This document shows positions 27,370 to 51,191 of a stretch of DNA of 64,000 bases, in pieces. Under the pieces are notes generated by a model. That model made no database searches. It was given only the letters and a program-made list of their open reading frames with translations, and was not told the DNA's origin. The stretch spans positions 124,968 to 188,967 of the forward strand of contig CAMQVP010000001.1 of NCBI GenBank assembly GCA_947038265.1, in the 5' to 3' direction. Every line of letters starts with the position of its first letter. Within the stretch, counting starts at the first letter, position 1. Source of the stretch: an uncultured Roseburia sp. (GTDB lineage: Bacteria > Bacillota > Clostridia > Lachnospirales > Lachnospiraceae). The position numbers were made by a program, and so were the translations under genes.

Positions 27370-27545
27370 CGTGCACCTCCTTTATAAATTTAATTCATAT
27401 AAAAAACCTCTCCGCCAAAAGACAGAGAGGCATCCTCTTTCCATCTCCTCGGCAGGCCCTTGCGGTTACGCCATGCGGCGCCTGCTGTCTTCGGCAAAAT
27501 TGTTCTAAAATATGCTGTTAAACTATAACATACTATCTATTTGAT
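27370..27545 (-). promoter_or_regulatory. Putative L10 (rplJ) autoregulatory leader region
   Basis: A ~190-nt structured GC-rich leader (ctcctcggcaggcccttgcggttacgccatgcggcgcctgc) sits between rplA and rplJ, where the Firmicutes L10 leader lies. The call rests on position only. Confidence 0.35.
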
Positions 27546-32841: not shown

Positions 32842-33026
32842 TTCAATATCATATACAGCTTCTTTGCATCATTTACAAAACCGATTTTGTCATATAATAT
32901 ACTAAACTCACTGTTAATATTCAATCATTTATCCCAAATCCCCTGCATTCCCGATCTCATACATCGTCAAAAAATCCGCCGGACAGACAATAAAATCTAT
33001 CCCGCGGATTTTTATATATACTATAC

Positions 33027-35120
33027 TTAGCCTTTTCCTAAATAGAGCAGATAAATCAACGTAAATACAAGCCCTACATAAAACAGAAGCAATCCAAACG
33101 ACAAACTCCTTTGGATAATCGTATTTGTTTCCATAATTTTTTCCCTCTGCATTGCAAGTCTATGCTCAAAAGATACTTCATGCTCCGGCGCAGGCCGCCT
33201 TAAAATCCGGCGTTTCTTATTCCTCAGCCAGTCCAGCGCCTCGCCAAGCAAATGCGTAAACTCCGAGCCCTCCGGCAGTTCGTGTGGAATCTTACGGTCA
33301 CGATATATGGTTTTCCGCAATAATACCACAATCCCGTCCACAAGACTGTCAAAAATCCTGCAAAACACTCTTGCCAAAAATGGAAGCGCTGTAAGCAAAA
33401 GCGGCCGGTAAATCAATCCTTCCATATCAAGCCAGTCTGGCCAGCAGTTGCGGTATTCACGAATCCCTTGTTTCTCCGCCATAAGGAATTTACGGATACA
33501 CCAGTATAACGCCGCCCCAATTCCAATCGAAATCAGCCCGCCTTTTAAGTTTTCGAAACTAAAATAAGAAACTGCATGGATTTCCCCATTAAAATTCATA
33601 AATCCCTGTCCCAAATCTGCAATTTTGTCCGTCACAAGATGAGGCAAAAATCCAAGAACCGGAAGGATTGCCGAACTTCCCACAATCGCAAACGCGCTGA
33701 TTGGATTCATATACTTTCTCATGCCGTCAAACCGCTTCTGTTCCTTTACGCTGCTGTTTTTCTCTACAAAGAGGGCAACATATAATTTCGTCATATAAGC
33801 AAGCGTCATTCCGCCGCTAAATAAAAACACCCACTCTGCCGCTTTCAAAAAACCAGACAATTCCACAGCCAGTTCTGCGCCTTCCACAATGCTTTCATGC
33901 AGAAGCGTTTTGCTGATATACCCGTTAAACAGCGGAATGCCCGAAATCCCAAGCGCGCCTGCAAGGAAACAGGCGTTTAACAACGGCTTTTTCCTGCCAA
34001 ATCCCCGAATGTCATTCAAATCCAGTTTATGCAGATTCATAACGACAACTCCGGCAATCATAAAAAGCGCCAGTTTAATCAACGAATGGTTCACCATATG
34101 CAAAAGAGTCCCACGCGCGGCAAGCCCGTTTTCTTCGCCTAAAATCCCCTGCATCCCAATGCCTGTCAGGATAAAACCAATCTGTGACATGGAAGAACAT
34201 GCAAGCGTCCGTTTCAAATCCACAGAAAACACTGCCAAAAGCGCGCCGCCAAACATTGTGCAAAGACCTAAAAAGAGCAACAGCAGCCCCCACCTCTGGT
34301 CATGCAAAAAAATATTACTGCTGACAGCCAAAATGCCAAAAACGCCCGCTTTTGTTAAAATGCCGGACAACAGCGCAGAAGCCGGAGCCGGAGCGACCGG
34401 ATGGGCTTTTGGAAGCCAGATATGCAGTGGAAACGCCCCCGCTTTTGCCCCAAATCCAACCAATGCGCAAACGCCCGCAATATATAAAACGCCCTTATCT
34501 TCGCAGGCGGCAGCCGCAGAGAGCAATTCAGACATTTCAAGCGTCCCAAGCGTATGATAAAGCAAAAACAATCCCATCAAAAGAACCAATCCGCCAATTA
34601 CGGCAACTGCCAGATACGTCTCGGCCGCTTTTAACGCGCCCTTCGTTTCTTCCTGCGCCACCCAGACATAGGAAGTAAAGGACATAATTTCAAAAAAGAT
34701 AAATGTCGTAAATAAATCCGCAGATAAGAACACCCCAAGCGTCGCATTCAGCGTAACCAACTGAAAAAAATAATATCTTCCCAAATGCTTCTCATGCCCC
34801 AGATATTCCCGTGAAAATAAAAGCGTCATCATCCACATAAAGGCTGCTACAATCCCATATACGCCGCGAAACCCGTCAAGGCAAAAATGCAGTCCGAGCC
34901 CGCAAATGCCCGGCGCATACAATTCACTTCCCATGCCCTGCTGCGCCAAAATGCACATTAAGATAAATATAAACGCTCCCGCGCCGATTGCCAGCGCATC
35001 CCTAAGATTTCTAAAAGCCGCGTTCTGTTCCGCCGCCTTTTGCGCCTTCCAGTCCGCCAGAAAAACCGCCGCTGCCGCTGCCGACGGAACGGTAAGCAGA
35101 GCCATATACAATCCTTCCAT
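33027..35120 (-). CDS. MrpA/NuoL-type antiporter-like subunit with C-terminal lateral amphipathic helix and terminal TM anchor
   Basis: A Proton_antipo_M core reads GFGAKAGAFPLHIWLPKAHPVAPAPASALLSGILTKAG. A ~200-aa C-terminal extension ends in a TM segment (SLSFGLLLFYVGLVFTLIYLL). I trimmed the start to the ATG after AGGAGG at 35120. Confidence 0.7.
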   Translation of the reverse strand: MEGLYMALLTVPSAAAAAVFLADWKAQKAAEQNAAFRNLRDALAIGAGAFIFILMCILAQQGMGSELYAPGICGLGLHFCLDGFRGVYGIVAAFMWMMTLLFSREYLGHEKHLGRYYFFQLVTLNATLGVFLSADLFTTFIFFEIMSFTSYVWVAQEETKGALKAAETYLAVAVIGGLVLLMGLFLLYHTLGTLEMSELLSAAAACEDKGVLYIAGVCALVGFGAKAGAFPLHIWLPKAHPVAPAPASALLSGILTKAGVFGILAVSSNIFLHDQRWGLLLLFLGLCTMFGGALLAVFSVDLKRTLACSSMSQIGFILTGIGMQGILGEENGLAARGTLLHMVNHSLIKLALFMIAGVVVMNLHKLDLNDIRGFGRKKPLLNACFLAGALGISGIPLFNGYISKTLLHESIVEGAELAVELSGFLKAAEWVFLFSGGMTLAYMTKLYVALFVEKNSSVKEQKRFDGMRKYMNPISAFAIVGSSAILPVLGFLPHLVTDKIADLGQGFMNFNGEIHAVSYFSFENLKGGLISIGIGAALYWCIRKFLMAEKQGIREYRNCWPDWLDMEGLIYRPLLLTALPFLARVFCRIFDSLVDGIVVLLRKTIYRDRKIPHELPEGSEFTHLLGEALDWLRNKKRRILRRPAPEHEVSFEHRLAMQREKIMETNTIIQRSLSFGLLLFYVGLVFTLIYLLYLGKG

Positions 35121-35131
35121 ATGAAATCCTC

Positions 35132-36607
35132 CTAAAAACTCCCCTCTGCAACCGCTGTTACAATTTCCATAAACGGAGCAGAATGCAGCCCAAACACTGC
35201 CATGCCCGCCACAAAAATAAACAATGGCGCAAGCATCAGCCAATTCGGGTCTTTGACGTCTTTTATCGTATTATAATCAAAATCCGCGCTTGGAAAATAT
35301 GCCCGCGCAACAATCGTCAGCATATACATTGCCGTAAGAAGGGCAGAGACTAATAAAGCGCCCACGCCAACATAAGCAATGACTTCTTCACTTTCCAATG
35401 CGGCAGAAGCCAGATTCCACTTACTGATAAACCCACATAAACCGGGCACGCCCATCAGCGCAAGAGAAGAAACCGTAAACACCGCAAACACCTTTGGCAT
35501 TTTTCTTCCAAACCCATCTAACTGATGGATATAATGGCGCTCTGTCTGATGCATAATGGCGCCCGCGCAAAAAAAGGATGCGATTTTCATAAACGCATGG
35601 AACACCATATGGCTTAAAGCCGCCGCCAGCCCAAGCGGAGTCATAATTGTCACGCCAAATAAAATATAAGACAGATTACTGATTGTCGAATATGCAAGGC
35701 GGCGTTTCAAATGCGTCTCTTTTAGCGCCATACTGCATCCATAGACAACCGTAAACATCACTACCGCCATCAGAAGATATTGCGCCCACGTCCCTTTCAA
35801 AAAACCAACGCCAAAACAGTAAAATGTCAGACGCATAATTGCAAACGCGCCGGATTTTACGACTGCCACTGCATGAAGAAGCGCCGTTACCGGCGTAGGC
35901 GCAACGCCTGCCTGAGGCAGCCATGAATTAAGCGGGCAGATTGCCGCTTTTACGCCAAAGCCAAAAAAACTGAATACATAAATCAAAAGAAAAATATTCT
36001 CATGGCCCACAATCGCTTCGGGATTTAACACCCCACCTAATGCAAAATCTGAAGTCTGCCCAAATACCAGAATAAAAATCATGCCGATAAAAGCAAACGC
36101 CGCGCCGCCAATCGAATAATACAAATACTTCCGGCTTGCCAAAACCGCCTCCCGCGTCAGCGTGTGCATAACTAAAGGAACTGTCACAAGCGTAAGCATT
36201 TCATAAAAGCAATACATTGTCAGAAAATTATCCGCTAAAGCAATCCCAAGCGTTACCCCGTAAGTAATCGTATAAAACATGAAAAACACTTTCTCATGTT
36301 TCTCTTTTGTCATATATTCAAACGAATACAACACGGCAAGCGGCCATAAAAAAGAAATCAATCCTGCAAAAATACAGCCAAGCCCGTCTAACTGAAAAGC
36401 GATTTTTAAATTTCCGGCAAAATTTAAAAGCGTAAAAGACCCGTCCGGACGGTTTAATAAAAGCATCCAGACCAGCGCCGAAGTAAGCGTTACGACAAAC
36501 TCCAGATAAATCAGCATATAAATCCGCTTTTTCCAAGGGATAACCGCCGTCAGGGCGCCGCCAATGCAGGGAATCAGTATTACGATAAATAAATAAATTG
36601 CGCTCAT
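35132..36607 (-). CDS. MrpD/NuoN/NuoM-like antiporter subunit (copy 3)
   Basis: The protein is 491 aa with 14 TM segments and reads PLNSWLPQAGVAPTPVTALLHAVAVVKSGAFAIMRL. Confidence 0.75.
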   Translation of the reverse strand: MSAIYLFIVILIPCIGGALTAVIPWKKRIYMLIYLEFVVTLTSALVWMLLLNRPDGSFTLLNFAGNLKIAFQLDGLGCIFAGLISFLWPLAVLYSFEYMTKEKHEKVFFMFYTITYGVTLGIALADNFLTMYCFYEMLTLVTVPLVMHTLTREAVLASRKYLYYSIGGAAFAFIGMIFILVFGQTSDFALGGVLNPEAIVGHENIFLLIYVFSFFGFGVKAAICPLNSWLPQAGVAPTPVTALLHAVAVVKSGAFAIMRLTFYCFGVGFLKGTWAQYLLMAVVMFTVVYGCSMALKETHLKRRLAYSTISNLSYILFGVTIMTPLGLAAALSHMVFHAFMKIASFFCAGAIMHQTERHYIHQLDGFGRKMPKVFAVFTVSSLALMGVPGLCGFISKWNLASAALESEEVIAYVGVGALLVSALLTAMYMLTIVARAYFPSADFDYNTIKDVKDPNWLMLAPLFIFVAGMAVFGLHSAPFMEIVTAVAEGSF

Positions 36608-36619
36608 AGATTCCCCTCC

Positions 36620-38092
36620 TTACATCACTTGGGCGGCAAACGCCGCAAATTCTTCTGTCAGCCCATTTGGCAAAACGCCAATGAGAATTGTCAAAACCGC
36701 CAACGCAAGCAGGGGAACAAGCATAAGATAAGACGGTTCTTTGCCTGCAAACCGTTTCCAGTCATACCCTTCCCCCGGAAAAAACCCTTGCATCGTAACC
36801 GGAAGAAGATAACCCGCCGTAAGCAGCGCGCTGACTAAAAGCGTAACAGGCCCAAGCCACGAAAAAACAGCCATTCCGGAATCAAGCGCCCCCGTCGCCA
36901 AATACCATTTGCTAATAAACCCGCTTAAAGGCGGAATCCCAATCAGCCCCAGTGAAACAATCGTATAACACCAGATTGTCACAGGCATTCCCTTTCCAAT
37001 GCCCCTTAAATCTTCCACCCGCGTCGCGCCTGTCCGGTAAATCACCGCCGATGCGCCCAAAAACAGAGCCGTTTTTATAAACGCGTGAGCCGCCACATGC
37101 AAAAGAGATCCGGTCAGCGCCTGCGGCTGCATAACCGATAACCCAAACAAAATATAGGAAAGCTGGCTGACTGTTGAATACGCAAGCCGCTTTTTTAACA
37201 CAGGCTCTCTGAATGCAAGCATGGAACCCATAAACACCGTGATAAGCGTTAATGCCATCCACACCGTCTGCACAATGCTCCCGCGTAAAAACTCAACGCC
37301 GATAAGCTGGTAAACCACACGGATAACCGCCAATACGCCGCCCTTTACAATAATGCCGGACAACACGGCGGATGCAGGCCCCGGAGCGACCGGATGCGCG
37401 GCAGGAAGCCACGCGTGCAATGGAAACATGCCTGCTTTTACGCCAAATCCTATCAGCATACACATCGTGACTGTCAAAAACAACGCGCTATGCTGCTGCA
37501 AAACGCCTGCTTCAATTACGCCGCCTGCCGTAAATTCAAGCGTCGTCCCATAACGGGAAATAAAATAAACGCCAAACAACGCCATATATGCGCCCGCAAA
37601 TGAAAAGAAAAGGTATTTCAAAGCCGCCATCACCGCTTCCCTTGACTGGTTATGCAGGACAAGCGGCATGGAAGTCAGCGTCATAAACTCATAAAACAGA
37701 TACATGGTAATCAAATTTCCTGAAAAATCCAGACCAATCAATACGCCAAATACAATCAGGTAAAATGCGTAATACCGTTTTTCATTTTTTTCATGCTTCA
37801 TATATTCAAAGGAAAAAAAGCCCGCTAAAATCCAGACAATGACAACGACAAACGTAAAAAACTTTCCCAGCATATCCAGCTTAAAATAAACCGGAAGCGT
37901 CTTAGTCAGGTAAAATAAAGTCACGCCGCCCTCCACTGCAAAAATCCCATAGATTGCTAAAATACCGCTGACAAGCAGAATGCTTCCCACAAAAACAAGC
38001 AATGTTTTCCTCTGTTTAAATTCCTTTTTAAACAATAATGCAATCCCTGCCAGAATTGGGCAAAATACCGGCCAAAGCAACAGTTGCTCCAT
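36620..38092 (-). CDS. MrpD/NuoM-like antiporter subunit (copy 2)
   Basis: The protein is 490 aa and reads GVKAGMFPLHAWLPAAHPVAPGPASAVLSGIIVKGG. Confidence 0.75.
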   Translation of the reverse strand: MEQLLLWPVFCPILAGIALLFKKEFKQRKTLLVFVGSILLVSGILAIYGIFAVEGGVTLFYLTKTLPVYFKLDMLGKFFTFVVVIVWILAGFFSFEYMKHEKNEKRYYAFYLIVFGVLIGLDFSGNLITMYLFYEFMTLTSMPLVLHNQSREAVMAALKYLFFSFAGAYMALFGVYFISRYGTTLEFTAGGVIEAGVLQQHSALFLTVTMCMLIGFGVKAGMFPLHAWLPAAHPVAPGPASAVLSGIIVKGGVLAVIRVVYQLIGVEFLRGSIVQTVWMALTLITVFMGSMLAFREPVLKKRLAYSTVSQLSYILFGLSVMQPQALTGSLLHVAAHAFIKTALFLGASAVIYRTGATRVEDLRGIGKGMPVTIWCYTIVSLGLIGIPPLSGFISKWYLATGALDSGMAVFSWLGPVTLLVSALLTAGYLLPVTMQGFFPGEGYDWKRFAGKEPSYLMLVPLLALAVLTILIGVLPNGLTEEFAAFAAQVM

Positions 38093-38104
38093 GTCTCTCT
38101 CCTC

Positions 38105-39595
38105 CTATGCAAAAACGGATAATCCCTGCGCAATCCAGTCCGTAATCGGCTGTGAACACATGCCAAGCACAACATTCAATATAATAAACAACAACAGCGT
38201 AACGGCATACGCCGGATTTTCCTTCCATGACGCCGATGCGTATTTGCCATGCGCCGGAGTATAAATCCGAATCACTGTTTTCATAAAATAAATGGTATTT
38301 AAAATCGTGCTGATGGCAAGGGCAATTAACGTCGGAAGCACTTTATGTTCATTTAAAATCGCCGCTTGTGAAAACAAAAGCTTACTGACAAATCCAGAAA
38401 AAACCGGAATGCCTACCATAGAAAGCGAACCGACGGTAAACGCAAGACCTGCGCATATATTGCGGTAAGCCGAGCCGGTCAGCTCCAAAAACTCCTTATG
38501 GCCCCCCGACACATCAGTAAGGCCCGAACCGGAAACAAACAAAAGTGATTTTGTCGCCGCATGGGACAGCATATGGAACACAGACGCCACCATGCCGACC
38601 GCCGTGCCAAGCCCAAACCCCATATAGATATAGCCAATCTGCGCCACAGATGAAAATGAAATCATTCTGCGAATGTCATTTTCCCGTATTGCGCTCAAAG
38701 AGCCCATAATCATGCCGGCAAGGCCAAACACAAAAAGAACATTAATAATTTTACTGTCCCTAAATGTATCAAATCCTATTACGCGGTAAATAATCTTAAT
38801 CAGTAAAAAAATATACCCTTTTGAAACAAGGCTTGACAAAATCGCCGCGGAAGAAACCGTGGAATACCCATAAGCGTTCGGGAGCCACGCATGGAACGGA
38901 AACAGCGCGCTTTTAATTGCAAGCCCGACGACAATCAGCGCAATCGTAACTAAAAGCGGCGTATGGTACGTCCCGTTTGCCACAATCGCATCAATGCCCG
39001 CCTTGATATTGCTCATTAAAAGATGCCCTGTCAAATCGTAAAGCAGGCAGATTCCAATTAAAAAAAGCCCGGAACCCAATAGGCTCATAATCATATAACG
39101 CGTTGCCGCTTCAATCGTATGCCCCCGCTCCGTAATCATAATTAATCCGCAGGCGGAAATTGTATTTATCTCTACAAAAACATACGCAGTAAACAAGTCG
39201 TTCGTATACACAAGCGCCAAAAGAGAACTCAAAAGCAAATCCACCATAATGTAATAGAGGTTTTCCTTGGCGGGATTGATTTCAAGCAGTAATTTCTTTC
39301 TTCCCCCATTTAAAGAAAGCATCATAATTACACAGAAAAATAACGCCATTCCGGCTTCTAAAGAACCAAAACGGATTTCATTCCCAAACGGCGCCGGAAA
39401 ATGCCCCATCACATAGACATAGCTTTCTTTTGTCGTGATCGTCAAATACAATACGGCAAATGACAAGACGCTGACTGCCGCTATTACAAAGGAATTAAGC
39501 CATCTTGCTCCCCTGCCTTTCAACGCTGAACTGATAATCGCCGCAAACATGCACAGCAGGATTGAAAGGCATGGGAAATTTTTTATTATCTCCAT
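38105..39595 (-). CDS. MrpD/NuoL-like antiporter subunit (copy 1)
   Basis: The protein is 496 aa and reads SALFPFHAWLPNAYGYSTVSSAAILSSLVSKGYIF. Confidence 0.75.
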   Translation of the reverse strand: MEIIKNFPCLSILLCMFAAIISSALKGRGARWLNSFVIAAVSVLSFAVLYLTITTKESYVYVMGHFPAPFGNEIRFGSLEAGMALFFCVIMMLSLNGGRKKLLLEINPAKENLYYIMVDLLLSSLLALVYTNDLFTAYVFVEINTISACGLIMITERGHTIEAATRYMIMSLLGSGLFLIGICLLYDLTGHLLMSNIKAGIDAIVANGTYHTPLLVTIALIVVGLAIKSALFPFHAWLPNAYGYSTVSSAAILSSLVSKGYIFLLIKIIYRVIGFDTFRDSKIINVLFVFGLAGMIMGSLSAIRENDIRRMISFSSVAQIGYIYMGFGLGTAVGMVASVFHMLSHAATKSLLFVSGSGLTDVSGGHKEFLELTGSAYRNICAGLAFTVGSLSMVGIPVFSGFVSKLLFSQAAILNEHKVLPTLIALAISTILNTIYFMKTVIRIYTPAHGKYASASWKENPAYAVTLLLFIILNVVLGMCSQPITDWIAQGLSVFA

Positions 39596-39969
39596 TATCG
39601 TTCTTCCCTCTTTACTCTTATCGAAATTTCATCTAAATCCAACGTATGATATCTGCGGTAAAGCCGGATTGTCAGAGAAAGCATAAGCGCCGTCACCGAC
39701 ACCGACACGACAATCCCCGTCAGCACAAGGCCGCTTGGCACCGGATTGATATACGTTTCCGGGCTTACATCGCCGTTTACCACTATCGGCGCAATATGCC
39801 CGGCGATATAGCCTTTTTCCGCAAGAAACAGATAAACGGCAGTGTCCATAATATTCAATCCGATAATCTTTTTTATCATATTTTTCTGTAAAAGCAGGTT
39901 TGTAAATCCAATTCCAAACAATAGAATCGCCACCGCTTCCGCATAGTTTGCAAGCAGATGTCCGCCCAT
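39595..39969 (-). CDS. MrpC/MnhC (NuoK-like) subunit
   Basis: The ~124-aa protein has 3 TM segments and reads AILLFGIGFTNLLLQKNMIKKIIGLNIMDTAVYLFL. Its stop and start overlap the flanking genes by 1 nt each. Confidence 0.7.
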   Translation of the reverse strand: MGGHLLANYAEAVAILLFGIGFTNLLLQKNMIKKIIGLNIMDTAVYLFLAEKGYIAGHIAPIVVNGDVSPETYINPVPSGLVLTGIVVSVSVTALMLSLTIRLYRRYHTLDLDEISIRVKREER

Positions 39970-40931
39970 TATAATCCTCCCCTCCGAAACAACGCGTAAA
40001 ACGCATACATAGTGCATGCCACTTCCGATCCGACAAAAATATTAATTGGAAGCGTAATGCCGCCGCTTAAAATCTTTCCGGCTTTTCCCAGCGGGATAAT
40101 ACTCTCTAATCCGTTCGCGCCGGTCAGGAAATAATACGTCACGATACAGCCATAACAGATTAACGCCGTCACCTTAATACATTTATAAACCTTTTCATTA
40201 AAAAACTTCTCCGTCTTATCAAAACCGAACGCCGCAACATATAAAATCATGCCCGCCCCAATCATCGCCCCTCCGGAAAAACCGCCGCCCGGCGATAAGT
40301 GCCCGTTTAAAATAATATAGATCCCAAACAAAAACACCAACGGAACGATAAGCGTCGCAACTTTCTTTAAGATTAAATTATTCTTCGGCTCAAAGCCACG
40401 ATCGTTCGACTCCTTATTTTCCCGAATTTTATCCTCATCTACCATCAGCATAATCATGACGCAGCAAGTCGCAATAAACAGCACATTCGTCTCACCAAAC
40501 GTATCAAACGCGCGGTACGAAAGAATCATGCCCGTAACGATATTGACGGCTCCCGTATCTTTTAAGCCATCTGATATATAAGTCTCCGATACAATATTAT
40601 TCGTCGGTTTATCTTCCGCCCCAACGCTTGGCAGATAGGAAACCATATACACCAGCACAAATACCAAAGCAATGCAAAAGACTACGCTCATACACTTATA
40701 TAGGACATTAAAAAATTTCAATTCTTTATTGTGCCTTCTGTCATACACTTCCGACAAAGCCTGCCTTCTGTCTCTTAAACGTTCTTCAATCGTCGTTTCC
40801 GCTTCGGCATACTCCTTCTGGGGATGCATTTCCATATTTCCCATAAATGCATCTTTTTCTCCGCCCAGCCATCTGAAAAAATGAAACGCAAACGTTTTTT
40901 CGTATTCACTCTGTTTCCTGATATGGCTCAT
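39969..40931 (-). CDS. MnhB/MrpB-related subunit (MbhE/F-like)
   Basis: The MnhB signature ILNGHLSPGGGFSGGAMIGAG is present. The start sits at an ATG after AGGAGGA. Confidence 0.7.
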   Translation of the reverse strand: MSHIRKQSEYEKTFAFHFFRWLGGEKDAFMGNMEMHPQKEYAEAETTIEERLRDRRQALSEVYDRRHNKELKFFNVLYKCMSVVFCIALVFVLVYMVSYLPSVGAEDKPTNNIVSETYISDGLKDTGAVNIVTGMILSYRAFDTFGETNVLFIATCCVMIMLMVDEDKIRENKESNDRGFEPKNNLILKKVATLIVPLVFLFGIYIILNGHLSPGGGFSGGAMIGAGMILYVAAFGFDKTEKFFNEKVYKCIKVTALICYGCIVTYYFLTGANGLESIIPLGKAGKILSGGITLPINIFVGSEVACTMYAFYALFRRGGL

Positions 40932-41190
40932 CGTCCTCCTCCTTTTCCGCTTCTTGGCGCAGCGCATGGATTTTTTTCAGCGTGACAAAAAACAAAATAC
41001 TCGTCACTCCGGCGCCAACCGCCGCTTCCGTAATCGCAAGATCCGGAGATTCCAGCAATATCCAGATAATCGACATAATCAGGCTGTATGACATAAAAAT
41101 CAAAATTGAATTTAAAAGGTTTTTTGAAAAACTGACCGAAACAGCGCAGACAATCAAAAAGCCGAGCAAAATCATATTAAATATCTGCAT
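40906..41190 (-). CDS. DUF4040 (MrpA C-terminal / MrpB N-terminal, MbhD-like) small membrane subunit
   Basis: The 94-aa protein has 3 TM segments, reads ILLESPDLAITEAAVGAGV and ends in an acidic tail. Confidence 0.6.
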   Translation of the reverse strand: MQIFNMILLGFLIVCAVSVSFSKNLLNSILIFMSYSLIMSIIWILLESPDLAITEAAVGAGVTSILFFVTLKKIHALRQEAEKEEDDEPYQETE

Positions 41191-41590
41191 CTTCCCCGTC
41201 CCCTTTCCGGACCGCTTCTTTTTCGGCTTCCTCCATGCTCACCATACGGCAGTTTTCCAGCAAAGTCTGATCCGTCGTATATTCCAGACGGGCAATCATA
41301 TGGGAAGACACGGGAGATGCGCACCATAAAAACACAATCACAAGCGCAAGCTTCGCCGTCGTCGCATCCCAGCCGTTTGCAACCATAAGACCGATTAAAC
41401 AAAGCCCAATGCCAAGCGTGTCTCCCGTCGCCGCGATCTGCATCCGGTTTAGCACAAATTTAAAACGGTAAACCCCGAAAATTTCCAAAAAGAAAATCGA
41501 CATGCCGAACACCAGCAACACTATTACAATCCCAAACCGAATCCATTCAATCGCCGCCATGCGCATCGCCCTCCCCATCGTCTCTTTCAA
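41177..41590 (-). CDS. MrpG/MnhG subunit
   Basis: The motif RMQIAATGDTLGIGLCLIGLMV corresponds to the RxHAxxKxxTxG-like MnhG signature. The exact start is uncertain, with several in-frame ATGs. Confidence 0.7.
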   Translation of the reverse strand: MKETMGRAMRMAAIEWIRFGIVIVLLVFGMSIFFLEIFGVYRFKFVLNRMQIAATGDTLGIGLCLIGLMVANGWDATTAKLALVIVFLWCASPVSSHMIARLEYTTDQTLLENCRMVSMEEAEKEAVRKGDGEDADI

Positions 41591-41879
41591 AATATACGCC
41601 CATATAGACTTTCGTCAAAATTATGACCGCCAAAAAACTAATCATTGCATAAATCAGGCAGATGTCCGCCAAATACCCTTCCTTGAGCATAACGGCAAGA
41701 ATTGCAATCGCCACCATAACCATCGTGCCCATCATATTGATTGCCACAATCCTGTCCGCCATTCTAGGCCCTGCCACCGCCCGTATCAGGCAGGCAAAAA
41801 ACAATACGGCAAGGATTACAAGCAAAACGACAAACAAGCCGTGATACGCCTGATTTAACGCCGCAATACCGCTATACAT
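41547..41879 (-). CDS. MrpF/MnhF subunit
   Basis: The motif LIRAVAGPRMADRIVAINMMGTMVM matches the MrpF pattern. Confidence 0.7.
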   Translation of the reverse strand: MYSGIAALNQAYHGLFVVLLVILAVLFFACLIRAVAGPRMADRIVAINMMGTMVMVAIAILAVMLKEGYLADICLIYAMISFLAVIILTKVYMGVYFERDDGEGDAHGGD

Positions 41880-42372
41880 GCCGCTTCCCCCTTTTCTTTA
41901 ACATTTCATCGTCAATCGCTTCCATTCTGCGGAGCATATGGACAAACACACTGTCGTCCATGCCTGCCGCCAAACTAACGTCCAACGCATGAACCGTCAG
42001 TTCATCTTCCTCCATCGCCACGGTAATTGTCCCCGGCGTCAGCGTAATGGAATTTGCCAATACCACATTGGCAAGATCCGTCTTTAATCCTGTTTGGAAT
42101 TGCACAATAACAGGATCAATTTCATTTCGGTAGCTTAACGTTAATCGAATCGCGCTTACATTCGCCTTAATGATTTCCCAGAATAAAACCAGAATATACA
42201 GCAAAATAAGCGGAAGCTTCCGTAAAAGAAGAATGTCCTTTTCAATAGAATAATCCATAAACTTACAAAAGAATGCGTACATTGCCCCTGCAATCACGAT
42301 TCCAAAACATACAATCTCCCCTGTCAACTGTCCATTGAGGAGAATCCATAATAATAGAAATACAAGATACAT
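41872..42372 (-). CDS. MrpE/MnhE subunit
   Basis: The motif LLWILLNGQLTGEIVCFGIVIA matches the MNHE N-terminus. The start sits at an ATG after GGGGGTG. Confidence 0.7.
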   Translation of the reverse strand: MYLVFLLLWILLNGQLTGEIVCFGIVIAGAMYAFFCKFMDYSIEKDILLLRKLPLILLYILVLFWEIIKANVSAIRLTLSYRNEIDPVIVQFQTGLKTDLANVVLANSITLTPGTITVAMEEDELTVHALDVSLAAGMDDSVFVHMLRRMEAIDDEMLKKRGKRHV

Positions 42373-42589
42373 ATTCTCACACCCCCAAATTAATTTACAC
42401 CCATTGCATAGAAGAATCAAGTAAATTATAATTTTTTTTGCGTTTTATAAGCAGTATGGAAAAACTTTCCATAAATAGATATAGCAATTACCATACAGCA
42501 TTTAACAGCTAATCACAAAATTTGCAACAAGATTGGAGATTGTATCCGGCATTGTCCCCTTCCTCTCTTTCACAGATTATTTGTTTTGC

Positions 42590-42618
42590 TTGACAGTCTT
42601 TATAAAAATAGTTATAAT
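42590..42618 (+). promoter_or_regulatory. Sigma-A promoter for tRNA-Leu(TAG) (TTGACA-17-TATAAT)
   Basis: This is a perfect consensus pair ending 12 nt before the tRNA 5' end. Confidence 0.6.
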
Positions 42619-42630
42619 AACAGAGGTTTT

Positions 42631-42710
42631 GCGGGTATGGCGGAATTGGCAGACGCGCCAGATTTAGGTTCTGGTGGGAGACCGTGCAGGTTCAAGTCCT
42701 GTTACCCGCA
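42631..42710 (+). tRNA. tRNA-Leu (anticodon TAG)
   Basis: Acceptor GCGGGTA pairs with TACCCGC, the D-arm is GCGGAATTGGCAGACGC, the anticodon loop is TTTAGGT (TAG) and the T-arm reads GGTTCAAGTCC. The 3' 49 nt are duplicated at 59488-59536. Confidence 0.85.
42662..42710 (+). repeat. attL-side direct repeat (tRNA-Leu 3' end), identical to 59488-59536
   Basis: Forty-nine of 49 nt are identical. Flanking sequence diverges immediately outside both copies. Confidence 0.9.
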
Positions 42711-42765
42711 TGATTTCAGGGTTTTTGAAACATTTGAGATGTTTCAGAGACCCTGTTTTTTTGCA

Positions 42766-42789
42766 TTTGACAGCAATTTGACAGCAACC
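42766..42789 (+). repeat. Pair of TTGACAGCAA direct repeats ~58 bp inside attL (candidate integrase arm-type sites)
   Basis: The sequence tttgacagcaatttgacagcaacc matches the pair at 59353-59376 in the same orientation. Confidence 0.6.
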
Positions 42790-43034
42790 AGAAAAATAAG
42801 GATATAATTCAAAAATTTCGAGACCATTTTCGGATATGCCTTAACAGGGTTTTTTCTGCTGAAAGCATAACACATCTTCATTTGTCTTTCAATTAGTTTC
42901 ACTTTTCCTCTTTTTTATGAAACAGTGTTAAAAATTTTTATGTAGATTTTTACAAAAAAATATAATAAAATATCAAAAAAGAGGTTATATAGTATATTTT
43001 TTATACTGCATAACTTAATATAGGAGAAATGATA

Positions 43035-45236
43035 ATGAAAATAATTTCTGTTAAAAATTTTCCAAAAGAAAACCTTGAAAAAAGTTATCCAAACACTTCT
43101 TCTTTACCCAAAAGACTTTCCCCGGAAGAAGCATCTGAAAAAGGCATTCCAATTTATATTAGCGCAGACTGGTATACTGTCATAAAGGGAAAACCCATCT
43201 GTTTTGTATTTCTCTCTTTCCGTCAGCATCAAGTTTATGGAGAAGATGAAAATCAGCTGCAGGACTGCCTTTATTCTATAAACTTATGGGCGGATTCACA
43301 ATTATTTGATATTGAACTTCCAAAGCAGGAAATCTATAATTCAAAATGGCTAAAGCAGCTCCATACGAAAAACCTCATTTTGATTTCTAAATCACAATAT
43401 GAACTTCTGCTTCAAGCCATACAGCCGGATACAAATAGCTCCTTTTATTTTGAGAAAATCGGCATTCATCAACTTTATGGAAAATACTATTATGCAGCTT
43501 CCAATTGTGCCATTACATCAGAGGGCATTGACAAATCCATAAAAGCGATGCAGGAAGGATTCAATTTAGAAATCGATTCCGAACTTTCGTTGAAAGACGA
43601 AGCCCCAAAAAAAAGCATTGAGAATTTTATGGACTACACTGCCCAGAATTACCGCGTCTTTTATCCTATCCACTGCATTTCTATTCTCGCTGTCCTAAGA
43701 TACTTTTTAAAAAAACTGGGCCGATCGGCAGGAGCCGTGCTATGGATTGACGGAAAGGTTGCCAGTGGGAAAACACAATTAGCCGTAACTATGGGTGACT
43801 TTTTCAACCGAAGCAGTAATTGGGAAGACCAGATTAAACATCTGCAAACCACCAAATCAAAACCAAAACTAATTGCAGCAGAACTTTCCAAATACAGGAA
43901 TGCTGTATTTATCCTTGACGATATTAAAAAAGAAGAAACATCTGGCAGCCGGGACAATACCAAAAACATTACAGATCTGCTCATCCGCTCTATATACACC
44001 GGAAAAACAGGGGGTTTTGGCACAGATGAGCAGCCGATTGACGCTGCTGCCGTTATTACAGGGGAGTATTTTAAAGAAATAGAATCCACATCATCAAGAC
44101 TGCTCTATTTGAATATAGACGATTTTTTACAGAAAGAAACAAACAGCAATCAATTCAAAAATATTCAAAAAGACAAATCTTACCTTGCTAAGTTTATGTC
44201 CTATTTTATACAATGGCTATTTCAATGGATAGAAGACATCAATAATGCTAAATTCTTAGAAACCACACTTACTAATTTACAAAATGATGCAGCAGAATGT
44301 TTTCATGGAGAATTAAGTACGCGAATGGCTGAGACGCTGGCAAATTTCCAATTAGTATCAGAAATCCTCAATGAGTATTTTAAAGAAAACCAGATTCCAA
44401 AAATAAACTGCACAGAATTTCATAAGAAATCCAGAGATTCTCTAAAAAATCTCGCTTACGCCACATTATACAAAAGTCTGAATTACTATCCCCTCATAGA
44501 GGAGTGCTTTTATAAAACACTGTCAGACCTTAAAATCAAAGACTGCCGATACGGGGAACATTATTTAAATATCGCATTGTCATCAGGAAATGACCATCTA
44601 CTACATATAGCCAAAGCTAAAGATACAGATTACCTTCATGAACCTGGAGCAAGCGCTATCAATTACGACGCCAAAGGTGAAAAGAAACTCTGGCTGTTGG
44701 GACTTCAGGAAGGCTACGACGGCATCATGTTAAACATAAAAGAATGCAATGTATTATTAGTAAAATCCAAAGTTCTATGCAGTCTAATTCGCGAGAAAAT
44801 AAAATCAGATATACAAAAGTGGCATATTAAATTATATCATTCTGATATGGAAGATGAAAGAATCCTAAACACCCTATTGGAACATCATTGCATTTATGGA
44901 TACAAACGGAGAGACAACAATTCATTTGATAAGATCATCAATTATCCTGAATTCTCCAGCAACCAAAATTTACTGAAGGAATATCATGAAAAACCATTTA
45001 TTGAGCAAGAACAGATGCATCATATGGTAAAAATAAACATAGCAAATGAACGTATATATAATAGAATTACAGATATAAAAAAGCCAGCTATGGATTCGTT
45101 TGCAACTTTATTTTCTGCTATGAACACATATGATTCAAGCGAAGGCAGACATTTTATAGAACCAAACGATGGTCCATACATGAAAAACCTCAAAGACATA
45201 TTTGCTAAAATTAATAGATTTTCAGACCTCCGGTAA
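43035..45236 (+). CDS. Large (733 aa) P-loop NTPase of unknown function (Walker A GKVASGKT, Walker B VFILDD); candidate island replication/primase-helicase-like or defence ATPase
   Basis: The Walker A motif LWIDGKVASGKTQLA lies at ~aa 240 and the Walker B motif NAVFILDDIKKEE at ~aa 295. The gene is AT-rich and is the first gene inside attL, directly upstream of xis-int. I could recognise no other domain. Confidence 0.5.
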   Translation: MKIISVKNFPKENLEKSYPNTSSLPKRLSPEEASEKGIPIYISADWYTVIKGKPICFVFLSFRQHQVYGEDENQLQDCLYSINLWADSQLFDIELPKQEIYNSKWLKQLHTKNLILISKSQYELLLQAIQPDTNSSFYFEKIGIHQLYGKYYYAASNCAITSEGIDKSIKAMQEGFNLEIDSELSLKDEAPKKSIENFMDYTAQNYRVFYPIHCISILAVLRYFLKKLGRSAGAVLWIDGKVASGKTQLAVTMGDFFNRSSNWEDQIKHLQTTKSKPKLIAAELSKYRNAVFILDDIKKEETSGSRDNTKNITDLLIRSIYTGKTGGFGTDEQPIDAAAVITGEYFKEIESTSSRLLYLNIDDFLQKETNSNQFKNIQKDKSYLAKFMSYFIQWLFQWIEDINNAKFLETTLTNLQNDAAECFHGELSTRMAETLANFQLVSEILNEYFKENQIPKINCTEFHKKSRDSLKNLAYATLYKSLNYYPLIEECFYKTLSDLKIKDCRYGEHYLNIALSSGNDHLLHIAKAKDTDYLHEPGASAINYDAKGEKKLWLLGLQEGYDGIMLNIKECNVLLVKSKVLCSLIREKIKSDIQKWHIKLYHSDMEDERILNTLLEHHCIYGYKRRDNNSFDKIINYPEFSSNQNLLKEYHEKPFIEQEQMHHMVKINIANERIYNRITDIKKPAMDSFATLFSAMNTYDSSEGRHFIEPNDGPYMKNLKDIFAKINRFSDLR

Positions 45237-45315
45237 CATCAAAGTAGCAGTAAAATCACCAGTTATATTTATATATCATATCTGGGACTAAATAAAACAG
45301 AAAGGATGATTTACC

Positions 45316-45486
45316 ATGAACAATTATGAAAAAGCTGCTTTGAGCGTAGAAGAAACTGCCAAATACTTAAACATTGGAAGGAGCTTATGCTACCGGATGA
45401 TCAGGGAAAACAAAATTCCTCATTTGAAATTTGCAAGCCGGATTGTCGTTCCAAAAGTTAAATTGGACGAAATGTTAAGTAAATAA
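45316..45486 (+). CDS. xis: Excisionase-family helix-turn-helix DNA-binding protein (Xis-like, HTH_17)
   Basis: The 56-aa protein reads MNNYEKAALSVEETAKYLNIGRSLCYRMIRENKIPHLKFASRIVVPKVKLDEML, with RBS AAAGGATGA. It is not in the ORF track because of its small size. Confidence 0.8.
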   Translation: MNNYEKAALSVEETAKYLNIGRSLCYRMIRENKIPHLKFASRIVVPKVKLDEMLSK

Positions 45487-45554
45487 AAACGAAAGCACAA
45501 AGAGCAATCAGTAACGGTTGCTCTATTTTTATGCATTTTACGGAGGCACAGATT

Positions 45555-46760
45555 ATGAAAAAAAGAAGTAATGGAGAAGGCACAATCTGCAAAAGGAATG
45601 ATGGAAGATGGATGGCTCAAATCCTCATTGATACCGGATATGGAGAATTTAAAAGGAAAACCGTATATGGAAAAACACAGCGTGAAGTGAAAGAAAAATT
45701 AGAGCAGTTAAAATCAGACCAAAAACAAGGCCGGGTAATTGAAACTTCGGATATGCCTTTAGAACAGTGGATGAATATCTGGATTACAAATTATAAACCG
45801 GATTTGAAGATTACAACAAGAGAAGATTATGAATCCTATATTAATACGCATATCCGAGGATCAGATTTAGGAAAGATTCCTTTGAACAAATTAAAAACAA
45901 CGGATCTGCAATCATTTTATAACAATAAGCTTGCCGGAACCTGCAAAGGTCAAAAGAAGAAATTATCACCAACCACAGTCCGGTATATTCATGTAATTAT
46001 CAAAAGTGCGTTAAATCAGGCAATTCAAAACCGGATGATAAACAACAATGCTGCAAATGCAGTCGTTCTCCCAAAAAAGAACAAGACGGAAATCATTCCT
46101 CTCACGCAGGAAGAAGTAATCCGCTTCCTTGAAACCGCAAGAGGGGATCGGCTATATGCACTATATTTGCTGGAAATGATGACCGGATTACGAAAAGGAG
46201 AAATTTTAGGCTTACAATGGAATGACATTGATTTTAAATGCAAAAGAATTACTGTTTCGCATAATCTCTGCCGGATTAAAAGCCGAAATAAAAATGCAGG
46301 AAAAAAATATGAATTAATCCTGATGAATCCTAAAACAGCAACCTCCAAAAGATGTATTCCCATCAATGATTTTATGGCTGACGAACTGCAAAAACATAAA
46401 TTGCACCAGATGAAAGAAAAAGAATTATACGGTGACTATTACAATGACCTTGGAATGGTTTTTTGCAAGCCAGACGGAAACTACATTTATTCCAGGGATT
46501 TTCTAAGACAATATCAAAATCTCCTTTCTAAAGCCGGTCTGGAAAAAAAACGGTTCCACGACTTGCGCCATACAGTAGCCAGCCTGCTTATCAATGCAAA
46601 TGAAAATCCTAAAATGATACAACAATTACTCGGCCACTCAAATATAAGCACTACACTGGATATTTATGCGCATGTAATGGACAAGTCCATGAATAAAAGC
46701 GTGGATAAAATCTATCAGCAGCTAGGTTTAAATTCCATACCCCAAAAAAAGAATCCCTAA
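45555..46760 (+). CDS. int: Tyrosine site-specific integrase (phage integrase family)
   Basis: The N-terminal SAM-like domain reads MKKRSNGEGTICKRNDGRWMAQI. The catalytic motifs read FHDLRHTVASLL (HxxR) and LLGHSNISTTLDIYAHV (the nucleophile Tyr). The start sits at an ATG after CGGAGG. Confidence 0.92.
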   Translation: MKKRSNGEGTICKRNDGRWMAQILIDTGYGEFKRKTVYGKTQREVKEKLEQLKSDQKQGRVIETSDMPLEQWMNIWITNYKPDLKITTREDYESYINTHIRGSDLGKIPLNKLKTTDLQSFYNNKLAGTCKGQKKKLSPTTVRYIHVIIKSALNQAIQNRMINNNAANAVVLPKKNKTEIIPLTQEEVIRFLETARGDRLYALYLLEMMTGLRKGEILGLQWNDIDFKCKRITVSHNLCRIKSRNKNAGKKYELILMNPKTATSKRCIPINDFMADELQKHKLHQMKEKELYGDYYNDLGMVFCKPDGNYIYSRDFLRQYQNLLSKAGLEKKRFHDLRHTVASLLINANENPKMIQQLLGHSNISTTLDIYAHVMDKSMNKSVDKIYQQLGLNSIPQKKNP

Positions 46761-46881
46761 TACAGTAAGCCTGCCACTGGCCAGCCTTTCTGCATACTGA
46801 GACAGTATAAGAAGCCTATGAACTACTTAGCTTTCATAGGCTTCCTATTTGATTTCTCATTTTTAAAAACAAGGCTGTCTA

Positions 46882-47775
46882 TCAAAAATATCCTTCTGCC
46901 TCCTCTGCAGAAAGGCCGTATTCTTCCATAATCGTTTCTTTGATTTCCGCATCTCCATGCCCAAATTTTCGAAGCATGTCTATTGCTCCCTGAATTCCCT
47001 GCTGCAATCCTTGCTGCAGTCCTTGCTGAATTCCCTGTTGCAATCCTTCGCTTATCTTTTCTTCATCCCTTAATAATAACTGTGGTTCCATGATCTCCAT
47101 TAACGCCTGGCACATACTAGCATCTCCCTTCCATTCTTCCACTGCCTGCCTGTTTGCCCCTATGCTGACCTCTAGAACGGAATCTGCCAGCTCCAGGTCG
47201 TTTTTTCCTGTCAGACTCCGGATTTTTTCCAGCAGTTCCGTTATGTCCTCTTTCTCCAGTTTTTCCGATAACGCTCCAAGCCATGTATGCTCCGCCTTAT
47301 CCAGCTCGCCCGTGACAACAACCTGCACAGGAAACATATTTTTCCCTTTTATATAATATATCCCCCGGTACGGGTTGGATACCATATATCCATGCTCCGC
47401 AAAATATCGGAAAAGCCCTTCCGGCCTTGTTTCCCGGAGCAGCGACACCGTAATGTCATCCTCTTTTCTTTCATCAGCCGCTTTCCCATAAGCTTTATAA
47501 AGGCCTGCATATGCCAGGGCTTTGTAAAAGGCGTCTATATCCAAATGGTCTTTGGGCGATTTGTATTCCATAATGTTATGCCCCAAAAAGAAGGCCCCTA
47601 TTTCATTTCCAATCCGCACGGATGGTTCTTTTTTTATCACCAGCAGGTCAATTTCCAAAGGCTTGGTGTTTAAATTATATTCTTTCTCAAAGACCAGCGC
47701 ATCCCGGTTCTCTGCAAGCTCCAAACCCATTGCTGCCACAAAGCCCGGATGCCACTGCACTTTCCTGTCTTTCAT
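46882..47775 (-). CDS. Rpn-family recombination-promoting nuclease / putative transposase (PD-(D/E)XK, TIGR01784-like)
   Basis: The N-terminal core reads LEIDLLVIKKEP...FLGHNIMEYKSPKD. The C-terminal tail reads EGLQQGIQQGLQQGLQQGIQGAIDMLRKFG with characteristic QQG repeats. Confidence 0.6.
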   Translation of the reverse strand: MKDRKVQWHPGFVAAMGLELAENRDALVFEKEYNLNTKPLEIDLLVIKKEPSVRIGNEIGAFFLGHNIMEYKSPKDHLDIDAFYKALAYAGLYKAYGKAADERKEDDITVSLLRETRPEGLFRYFAEHGYMVSNPYRGIYYIKGKNMFPVQVVVTGELDKAEHTWLGALSEKLEKEDITELLEKIRSLTGKNDLELADSVLEVSIGANRQAVEEWKGDASMCQALMEIMEPQLLLRDEEKISEGLQQGIQQGLQQGLQQGIQGAIDMLRKFGHGDAEIKETIMEEYGLSAEEAEGYF

Positions 47776-48043
47776 AGTAATCTCCTTTGTGTGGTTAAAT
47801 TATAACATACCTTTCATAATTTCCGCAACCGCCCAAATCTCTACATTAAATTACCTTAGCAGGTATATAAATTTTCCATGTATCGGAAACGGCTGCAGGA
47901 TTTAGATTCCACAGCCGCTTCTGCTTCTTTTTCTTATTCCTCATTCCCATCCTTAGACAAAAGCGCGAGAACCGCCGTCAATATCCCCGCTACAACCGCC
48001 TTGATGATATGCTCCATAATTCCAACCGCCTTTCTGCGCTGCT

Positions 48044-48922: not shown

Positions 48923-49062
48923 CTCCACGCTTCCTCCTTAAAATAATCTGGGCGCATGGCATTTTCCCCATGCGCCCGCGTTATGTCCCGGCATTTATAA
49001 AATTATTCTTTGGGGTACGCATTAAATGCCGCATACCCATTTTGCAATGCGTATCCCGTCCT

Positions 49063-49272
49063 TTACGCCCTCCATGTAAAGGGCCGCTTCTTTCCAGCGG
49101 GCCTGTGGTCAAGGAGCATCCCTGCCTGCGTCCGCTCTTTTCCGCTTAAGCCGCCTCCCAGTATTTTTTCCAGCTCCGCAAACGTTTCCCCCTGCTCCGG
49201 GAGGCCCTGCTGTTTCGACAGCATGTCCAGCCGCTTTTCAACCGCCCATGCGGTAAAATCCTCTTCTTCCAT
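49063..49272 (-). CDS. Small hypothetical protein (69 aa)
   Basis: The protein reads MEEEDFTAWAVEKRLDMLSKQQGLPEQGETFAELEKILGG. The start sits after AGGAGG. Confidence 0.35.
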   Translation of the reverse strand: MEEEDFTAWAVEKRLDMLSKQQGLPEQGETFAELEKILGGGLSGKERTQAGMLLDHRPAGKKRPFTWRA

Positions 49273-49313
49273 GTCCTGCCTCCTGAAAATCCCATGGGGA
49301 TTTTGTCCATCCA

Positions 49314-51111: not shown

Positions 51112-51191
51112 TTTTTCTTTTCCTCCCTGTAATTTTTTTGTTTTTTTGTTAATTTTGGAAGCATTTCTTCCGGAACATTTCACAGGCCCCG

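Follow-up and report, generated by a model that had tools for sequence, protein, structure and literature searches.

A ten-gene Mrp-type operon of Lachnospiraceae with four antiporter-like modules and no neighbouring redox genes

Canonical group 1/2 Mrp antiporters (B. pseudofirmus 7QRU, A. flavithermus 6Z16, Dietzia 7D3U) are encoded in the order A-B-C-D-E-F-G and have two proton modules, with MrpA a single polypeptide that runs from transmembrane helix (TM) 1 to TM21. Irregular clusters with an extra mrpD have been placed in a catch-all 'group 3', and the mrp clusters of anaerobes differ markedly (PMC5703873); the definition of group 3 by Haja et al. also demands that no mrpA gene be present (PMC8415708). 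Here we describe a cluster of ten genes in a stretch of 64 kb of DNA, hereafter the window, from an uncultured Roseburia sp. (assembly GCA_947038265.1, contig CAMQVP010000001.1, positions 124,968 to 188,967). It runs E-F-G-...-A instead of A to G, has four modules rather than two, and splits MrpA over three or four genes (D3/L, MbhD, B). To judge from the sequences, the closest known architectures are the stand-alone 'group 3' Mrp of P. furiosus (mrpEFGBB'CD, PF1147-53; PMC8415708) and the membrane part of MBS (mbsABCDEGHH'; 6U8Y). The P. furiosus Mrp likewise begins with E-F-G and has no redox genes, but MrpD is its only antiporter-like subunit and nothing in it is MrpA-like or bears a lateral helix, whereas the Roseburia cluster has four antiporter-like subunits. 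With a probability of roughly three in four, we read the operon as encoding a stand-alone secondary Mrp-type (CPA3) monovalent cation/proton antiporter, with an MBH/MBS-like layout and an enlarged proton arm.

Ten open reading frames (ORFs) are packed on the minus strand between 33027 and 42372, each where an earlier sequence-only reading of the window had placed it. They are transcribed in the order E-F-G-MbhD-B-C-D1-D2-D3-L, the names used here for the genes and their products, with B a fusion of MbhE and MrpB. In a Pfam profile search all ten products scored above the gathering score, and the E-F-G start and the domain assignments proposed in the earlier reading were borne out. The genes, and the terminator that follows them, are:

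41872..42372, minus strand: E, MrpE/MbhA/MbsA-like, 166 residues (MNHE PF01899, about 1e-31 to 3e-31; best PDB match MbsA, 6u8y_A)
41547..41879, minus strand: F, MrpF/MbhB-like, 110 residues (MrpF_PhaF PF04066)
41177..~41578, minus strand: G, MrpG/MbhC-like, about 133 residues (PhaG_MnhG_YufB PF03334, 6e-21)
40906..41190, minus strand: MbhD (DUF4040), NuoJ-like, 94 residues (PF13244, 3e-20; aligned to MbhD 6cfw_D and MbsD 6u8y_D)
39969..40931, minus strand: B, fusion of MbhE and MrpB/MbhF, 320 residues (PF20501 and MnhB PF04039; best PDB match MbsE, 6u8y_E, 3e-22)
39595..39969, minus strand: C, MrpC/MbhG/NuoK-like, 124 residues (Oxidored_q2 PF00420, 7e-21; best PDB match MbsG, 6u8y_G, 1e-21)
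38105..39595, minus strand: D1, antiporter-like, MbsH/MrpD/NuoN type, 496 residues (Proton_antipo_M PF00361, 3e-49; best PDB match MbsH, 6u8y_H)
36620..38092, minus strand: D2, antiporter-like, with MrpD/MbhH-type transmembrane helix 8 (TMH8) and ND5-type N-terminus, 490 residues (PF00361, 1e-55, and Proton_antipo_N PF00662; best PDB match MbhH, 6cfw_H)
35132..36607, minus strand: D3, antiporter-like, with MrpA/NuoL-type TMH8 core and without lateral helix, 491 residues (PF00361 and PF00662)
33027..35120, minus strand: L, antiporter-like, with MrpD/MbhH-type core and lateral-helix extension, 697 residues (PF00361; about 205 residues beyond TM14)
32970..33013, minus strand: intrinsic terminator, an 18-bp hairpin and U-run (fold -27.1 kcal/mol, z = -6.2, 0/200 shuffles as stable)

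The tight coupling reported earlier (overlaps of 1-26 nt, gaps of 11-12 nt) is confirmed, with the start of G ambiguous. Neighbours overlap by 8 nt (E/F), 14-32 nt (F/G, as the start codon of G lies somewhere between 41560 and 41590), 14 nt (G/MbhD), 26 nt (MbhD/B), 1 nt (B/C) and 1 nt (C/D1), and the large genes are separated by 12 nt (D1/D2), 12 nt (D2/D3) and 11 nt (D3/L). The terminator sits right behind the stop codon of L. Given the tight overlaps and gaps and this terminator, the ten genes form one compact, self-contained unit.

For nine of the ten products, the best match among solved chains is a P. furiosus MBS or MBH subunit; for MrpF it is the B. pseudofirmus Mrp, and no best match is a redox subunit. 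NCBIfam models returned only sub-threshold likeness to 'putative monovalent cation/H+ antiporter' equivalogs. The module order had been described as MBH/MBS-like rather than mrpABCDEFG, and the cluster is indeed colinear with mbsA-B-C-D-E-G-H-H' and shares with MBS the MbsE-type fusion of MbhE and MbhF. What had been called a 'split MrpB' turned out differently: by alignment, the MbhD gene corresponds to the C-terminal TM17-19 of MrpA and not to MrpB, and the 320-residue B joins MbhE (MrpA TM20-21) and MrpB in one protein, like MbsE of P. furiosus, so the pair represents the C-terminal part of MrpA (MbhD, MbhE) plus MrpB.

Proton_antipo_M is found in D1, D2, D3 and L, in agreement with the four antiporter modules counted earlier, three of them consecutive MrpD/NuoMN-like genes (496, 490 and 491 residues) with E-values from 1e-49 to 1e-55. 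We typed the modules by their bit-score profiles against solved chains, by the TMH8 signature and by the presence of PF00662. D1 scored 172 bits against MbsH and D2 184 bits against MbhH, while D3 scored 140 against MbhH, 128 against NuoL and 126 against MrpA; L scored 173 against MbhH and 163 against MrpD, above its 131 against MrpA. Residue conservation was read from orthologues of D1 (66), D2 (71), D3 (74), L (80), MbhD (66), B (66) and F (60), so that each module was compared across 66-80 species. All four modules keep the TM5 Glu, the TM7 Lys, the TM11 His-x3-His-x3-Lys and the TM12 Lys. In D1, E142, K228, K259, H341/H345/K349 and K405 are invariant, as are E135, K219, K250, H336, K340 and K395 in D2, where H332 is present in 70/71 orthologues. 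The relay residues of L are likewise invariant in its 80 orthologues. The proton-relay residues of D3 are E136, K220, H245, K251 (Lys in 65/74), H333/H337/K341 and K396.

The TMH8 segment separates MrpA/NuoL from MrpD/NuoM/NuoN (PMC4938563; PMC9568556). The MrpD-type form of this helix, which has a central Lys, is present in D1, D2 and L; in L, Ser252 stands in place of the His and is followed by the MrpD-type Lys257. The TMH8 of D3 reads P237-T-P239-V-T241-A-L-L-H245-A-V-A-V-V-K251 (signature PTPVTALLHAVAVVK), and its spacing exactly equals that of P240/P242/S244/H248 (the 'histidine switch')/K254 in B. pseudofirmus MrpA (PMC9568556). Within this segment 'PTPVTALLHAVAVV' is invariant in the D3 orthologues and also in relatives whose L is 35-56% identical. 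On the strength of this motif we assign the MrpA/NuoL 'histidine-switch' signature to D3 and not to L. The 697-residue terminal subunit had been described as MrpA/NuoL-like, with a lateral-helix extension and a terminal TM; the extension and the terminal TM stand, but the core is MrpD-type and the MrpA signature is in D3. In canonical Mrp and in complex I, histidine switch and lateral helix are carried on one polypeptide; here they are split between D3 and L.

The extension of L comprises TM15 (522-545), three amphipathic lateral segments (566-604, 620-640 and 651-~671) and TM16 (~672-694), and is gap-free in the 80 orthologues. An AlphaFold2 monomer model of L built from a 50-sequence alignment had a predicted local distance difference test (pLDDT) score of 84.3; a model from a 9-sequence alignment gave a pLDDT of 55 and was set aside. 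The top Foldseek matches of the retained model, over its full length, are MrpA (7QRU_A, 6Z16_A), NdhF and NuoL. We read the extent of the lateral helix from predicted secondary structure and from the ends of hidden Markov model alignments: the NuoL model NF005141 aligns to L residue ~606, beyond which come ~65 further residues with two more helices, and then TM16. Since the NuoL model ends at ~606, the extra residues are consistent with bridging one module more than NuoL does. By analogy with solved complexes, L would be the distal subunit and its brace would span D3, D2 and D1, compared with two neighbours for NuoL and one for MrpA.

We asked how far this architecture extends by searching a collection with one genome per species, in which at least 552 loci encode a relative, and studied the best 80 of them. 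Nearly all 80 are labelled Lachnospiraceae (Roseburia, Blautia, Acetatifactor, Eubacterium), and they include the cultured carriers Acetatifactor muris DSM 23669 and Roseburia sp. 1XD42-69. L is 100% identical to a protein of 'MAG: Eubacterium sp.' and its relatives number in the thousands; in an exhaustive profile-free search, 50%-identity clusters with E < 1e-120 numbered at least 150, and many of the listed matches extend through the C-terminal extension to L residue ~692-694. Gene order was counted by mapping the ten window proteins onto the 65 loci whose upstream DNA spans the whole operon. The order E-F-G-MbhD-B-C-D1-D2-D3-L is identical in all of them, which argues that the arrangement is not due to chance, and across the same 65/65 loci every D paralogue is best matched by its own positional counterpart. 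Three distant members (L 35-56% identical), among them relatives with L at 35-40%, keep the same architecture. Two of these three, from distant Clostridia, have a nine-gene operon in which MbhD, MbhE and MnhB are fused as one gene:

L081, 2555-3604: fused MbhD/MbhE/MnhB gene, 349 residues
L082, 4026-5075: fused MbhD/MbhE/MnhB gene, 349 residues

The fusion resembles the 336-position NCBIfam model PRK12507, and the split or fused state thus varies in the family.

Three consecutive genes of one family and of similar length might be redundant or decaying duplicates added to a two-module Mrp, and the sequence-only reading had itself named recent duplication with decayed Lys/Glu residues as the case that would overturn it. 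The paralogues are only 24-41% identical (D2-D3 41%, D2-L 36%, D1 against the others 24-28%), their positional orthologues recur in 65/65 loci and in relatives at 35-56% identity, the TM5 Glu, TM7 Lys, TM11 and TM12 residues are kept, and the TMH8 signature of D3 is distinct and strictly conserved. This divergence and residue conservation rule out recent or decayed duplicates, and we give the idea practically no credence. The low paralogue identity, together with the fixed position of each paralogue across loci and distant relatives, instead points to an ancient triplication and to an architecture that is a stable trait of the family.

Public annotation of the family's subunits is inconsistent ('NADH dehydrogenase', 'sodium:proton antiporter', 'complex I subunit 5 family', 'hypothetical'), and full-text literature searches turned up nothing naming, characterising or experimentally reporting this cluster in Lachnospiraceae or Clostridia; the N. 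thermophilus paper deals with single-gene antiporters. The possibility that it is an already named Mrp subtype is therefore not borne out by this literature, in which it fits only the loose 'group 3/irregular' class (PMC5703873, PMC8415708).

Two functions had been proposed for the cluster, a stand-alone antiporter and the membrane arm of a complex with a distant redox module. Under the second, the ten proteins would be the ion-pumping arm of a redox-driven complex whose electron-input module is encoded elsewhere. To our knowledge, the characterised complexes that have three or more antiporter-like modules (complex I, Hyf, Fpo) are all redox-driven, and the gene order equals that of the mbs genes of MBS, whose chains are the best matches of most subunits (PMC8415708). 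The absence of adjacent redox genes noted earlier was upheld: besides the operon, 30 large ORFs were scanned across the window, and none encodes a hydrogenase, a formate dehydrogenase, a Nuo/Ech redox subunit or a NuoH-like protein. We then clustered 1042 ORFs from ~10 kb on each side of the operon in 79 related loci. Even the most frequent flanking family turned up in no more than 10 loci. Families that do recur are MatE, a TrmB-type methyltransferase, aspartate kinase, a cytidylate-kinase-like protein, thioredoxin, DD-carboxypeptidase, HtrA, a hybrid kinase, isopropylmalate synthase and peptidases. NiFe large-subunit, NuoB and FeFe H-cluster motifs were found in 0/1042 of these flank ORFs and a ferredoxin-type motif in 2/1042, and precomputed Pfam annotation showed no redox neighbours in the three distant loci. 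In five loci (L063, 2106-2456, and four others) mrpE is preceded, after 4 nt, by the end of a same-strand thioredoxin gene that is not conserved elsewhere; it could be counted in favour of a redox partner, but it is limited to those five.

In complex I, MBH and MBS the connection between the redox arm and the ion-translocating arm is made by a NuoH/MbhM-type subunit (Table 2, PMC8415708), and this link of all solved relatives is missing here, as no NuoH/MbhM/HycD-type subunit is found among the ten operon products. Because of this, and because within ~10 kb per side no flanking family recurs widely, NiFe, NuoB and FeFe motifs are absent and the distant loci are equally isolated, an orphan membrane arm seems to us quite improbable. 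The stand-alone antiporter is favoured by the same lack of a NuoH/MbhM-like subunit, by the strong terminator straight after L and by the lack of a conserved partner gene near the operon in 80+ loci.

We mapped residues of the small subunits by alignment to solved Mrp, MBH and MBS chains, taking their roles from PMC7419157 and PMC9568556. In MbhD the motif SPDLAITEAAVGAG is invariant in the 66 orthologues, as is E55. This residue aligns with the Glu of the conserved motif PDVAIAEAAVGAG in MBH MbhD, which we take to be E69. MbhD E69 has been equated with A. flavithermus MrpA E706 (PMC7419157), and E55 would be the counterpart of B. pseudofirmus E687. In B, 'PGGGF' and D143/E147 of 'DTFGE' are invariant, the latter two being the probable equivalents of MrpA D792/E796. 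Ahead of its MbhE-like part, B has a family-specific hydrophilic N-terminal extension of ~80 residues (1-80), gap-free and moderately conserved in all 66 orthologues, to which no Pfam domain matched. In C, N39/D42 match MbhG N34/D37 and T84 is also kept, all three being invariant, and in F, D42 is invariant (D29 in A. flavithermus, D32 in B. pseudofirmus). The window proteins further contain the 'ITLTPGT' motif in E (B. pseudofirmus T113/P114) and the Pro of 'SPVSSH' in G (P86 of A. flavithermus MrpG). Most carboxylates assigned to the cation path in solved Mrp and MBH structures are thus present (MbhD E55, B D143/E147, F D42).

Besides the redox drive of the known complexes with at least three antiporter-like subunits, several points weigh against the stand-alone antiporter. 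The neighbourhood evidence covers ~10 kb per side of the operon, not whole genomes. The order of the subunits and the span of the lateral helix are proposed from a monomer prediction and analogy. All NCBIfam scores lie far under the equivalog cut-offs, with 329 against 663 bits for D3 (NF006236) and 165 against 272 bits for B (NF009161). The cation path itself differs in two places. In C, family-wide, Tyr46 occupies the position of the cation-coordinating His of Mrp and MBH (MbhG H41, A. flavithermus MrpC H40). In F, Asn48 replaces D35 of A. flavithermus (D38 of B. pseudofirmus), an Asp in all five solved homologues (7qru_F, 6z16_F, 6cfw_B, 6u8y_B, 7d3u_F), and is Asn in 60/60 orthologues and in the three distant relatives. 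That Asp has been called 'invariably conserved', lies on the proposed Na+ entry path, and the D35L variant is inactive in A. flavithermus (Steiner and Sazanov, PMC7419157), while a D-to-N change was reported as mild in B. subtilis MrpF (PMC7419157). A residue deemed invariant and required for activity is thus Asn in this family, and as a consequence the proposed cytoplasmic Na+ entry may differ. Comparing the sequences, we read Asn48 as a family-specific change of the cation entry path, not an inactivation.

These two substitutions also bear on a stand-alone Mrp working in another mode: Na+ uptake for H+ expulsion under short-chain fatty acid stress, exchange of K+ or another cation, or bile-salt tolerance. 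The P. furiosus mrpEFGBB'CD, the closest characterised layout, uses Na+ and guards against acidification (PMC8415708); roles of Mrp in bile-salt tolerance (MrpF in B. subtilis, Mrp in V. cholerae) and in K+ and Ca2+ exchange are documented (PMC5703873), and the hosts here are gut Lachnospiraceae. Four proton modules per cation path would, however, make Na+-driven H+ export energetically harder, and the remaining cation-site carboxylates match those of Na+-translocating Mrp and MBH. We hold such a mode to be unlikely, though less so than the redox arm.

If the operon does encode the enlarged cation/proton antiporter, E, F, G, MbhD, B and C would form the Na+ (or K+) path, in which cations would pass MrpE/G/F, MbhD, B and C to a coupling site beside the TM5 Glu of D1. 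D1, D2, D3 and L would line up beside MrpC and carry protons, which could be relayed on the Lys/Glu/His axis of L, D3, D2 and D1, with D3 as the histidine-switch junction, as in MrpA. At the distal end L would clamp the row through its unusually long cytoplasmic lateral helix, and TM16 would end near the small subunits. A proton (or sodium) gradient would drive the exchange, and several H+ may cross per cation, making it a strongly electrogenic 'high-gear' exchanger, with more proton modules per cation site giving a higher H+/cation ratio. In a fermenting gut anaerobe such an exchanger could expel Na+ at low proton-motive force, or interconvert H+ and Na+ gradients.

How one event at a cation or quinone site drives serial proton modules is still debated. 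We put forward, tentatively and with more doubt than belief, that this is a naturally 'over-geared' Mrp, with four proton modules per cation site, the D3 histidine switch internal to the row and L as an extra MrpD-type module with an elongated helix. In that case the complex-I superfamily would be able to scale its number of modules and its H+/cation stoichiometry with no redox input, many gut Lachnospiraceae might use the complex as their main converter between H+ and Na+ gradients, and it would offer a tractable test of whether protons exit via every module or only via the distal, histidine-switch one. With its relocated histidine switch, longer brace and MrpF Asn, a stand-alone four-module complex would give structural and stoichiometric studies a useful point of comparison, and could shed light on the mechanism of coupling in the superfamily and on how major gut commensals handle ions. 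Because the family is widespread in abundant gut Clostridia, it likely matters for Na+/pH homeostasis of gut butyrate producers and acetogens.

Upstream of E, ~220 nt of intergenic DNA separate the operon from a divergent tRNA-Leu(UAG) with its own perfect promoter and terminator:

42373..42589, minus strand: operon 5' leader/intergenic region, with TATAAT at 42430-42425 and a GGGGG Shine-Dalgarno ahead of the ATG at 42372

That the TATAAT is the operon promoter is a guess at the level of the consensus, and a sigma-70 scan of 42373-42590 gave no convincing promoter. No known RNA leader or riboswitch was found ahead of mrpE in an Rfam scan at the gathering threshold, which returned two tRNAs and an L10 leader only. 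The latter is the ribosomal protein L10 leader (RF00557, 73 bits) at 27391-27512 on the minus strand, upstream of rplJ. On its 3' side the operon is followed by a 123-residue ORF, genes for flagellin and a chemoreceptor, and nusG-rplK-rplA-rplJ. All 30 large ORFs that were scanned outside the operon have housekeeping, sporulation, surface or mobile-element roles. The window also encodes a 2017-residue surface protein (10537-16590, minus strand), which has eight Flg_new_2 repeats as well as LamG, List_Bact_rpt, PKD-like and BspA-LRR domains; on the opposite strand, just 3' of its gene, is a tRNA-Leu(CAG) at 10324-10409.

The 5' side, past tRNA-Leu(UAG), is occupied by an integrated mobile element, a 16.8-kb integrative element inserted at that tRNA (window 42630-59537). 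It is bracketed by att sites at 42662-42711 and 59488-59537, where 50 nt from the 3' half of tRNA-Leu(UAG) are repeated perfectly in direct orientation, and its GC content varies between 0.34 and 0.555. The element has genes for a tyrosine integrase (45531-46760), DUF5688, a Rad52-like protein, a YqaJ recombinase and DUF932, and also encodes a 1244-residue BspA/LRR_5 surface protein (52323-56057) and a 176-residue MobA/VirD2 relaxase fragment (57154-57684). Its first gene, adjoining the tRNA, is a 735-residue ORF (43029-45236, plus strand; GC 0.34-0.36) that had no Pfam match; the exact sequence is on 60 contigs, its cluster at 90% identity has 91 members, and the named ones are 'hypothetical protein' in Lachnospiraceae.

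Set beside the known systems, the cluster shares further features with the stand-alone Mrp of P. furiosus: the MrpA C-terminal domain is likewise apart from the antiporter-like subunits, and the small subunits are MBH/MBS-like. The fusions differ, being MbhD+MbhE / MbhF in P. furiosus and MbhD / MbhE+MbhF in Roseburia, and the host is archaeal in one case and bacterial (Lachnospiraceae) in the other. In MBS the likeness extends to single chains: E, G, B, C and D1 each have an MBS chain as best PDB match, and MbsH', like L, is the last large subunit and has TM15, a lateral helix and TM16. Compared with MBS and MBH (6CFW), however, the cluster is without the NuoH-like MbsM and without MbsJ/K/L/N, has two additional antiporter-like modules, and shows the MrpF Asp-to-Asn and MrpC His-to-Tyr changes.

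With canonical Mrp the cluster has in common the same seven domain types, the Lys/Glu relay, the carboxylates of the E687/E706 and E780/E796 types, the TPG of MrpE, the Pro of MrpG, the PGGGF of MrpB and the lateral-helix brace, and it differs in having Asn where canonical MrpF has D35/D38. A module number above two has precedent in the clusters of Aphanothece (mrpCD1D2EFGAB) and Microbacterium TS-1 (mrpFGBCDDAE; PMC5703873), which, compared by description and not by sequence, are also stand-alone, with a duplicated MrpD and a non-canonical order; these have two D genes and an intact A (three modules) in another order. The membrane arm of complex I (NuoL/M/N/K/J) and E. coli Hyf (HyfB/D/F) resemble the cluster, in its proposed arrangement, in that three or more antiporter-like subunits form a row with the lateral helix of the distal subunit as its brace. 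Complex I also shares NuoK-like and NuoJ-like small subunits, and L is structurally closest to MrpA, NdhF and NuoL. Unlike complex I, the cluster has no NuoH, NuoA or peripheral arm, has MrpE/F/G/B, contains four modules rather than three, and its helix-bearing L is without the NuoL-type TMH8 His.

As to class, the irregular order and multiple D genes of group 3 are present, and there is no full-length MrpA, yet D3 has the MrpA TMH8 and L the lateral helix. All Mrp domain types occur together, with the proton-relay residues and the cation-path carboxylates and motifs of the Mrp/CPA3 family; the 'invariably conserved' MrpF Asp is missing, and no subunit belongs to an NCBIfam equivalog. The cluster falls outside group 1/2 Mrp, the MBH/MBS respiratory complexes and complex I/NDH-1. 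Recognisable by homology, it is an uncharacterised variant of the Mrp family and not a new kind of machine.

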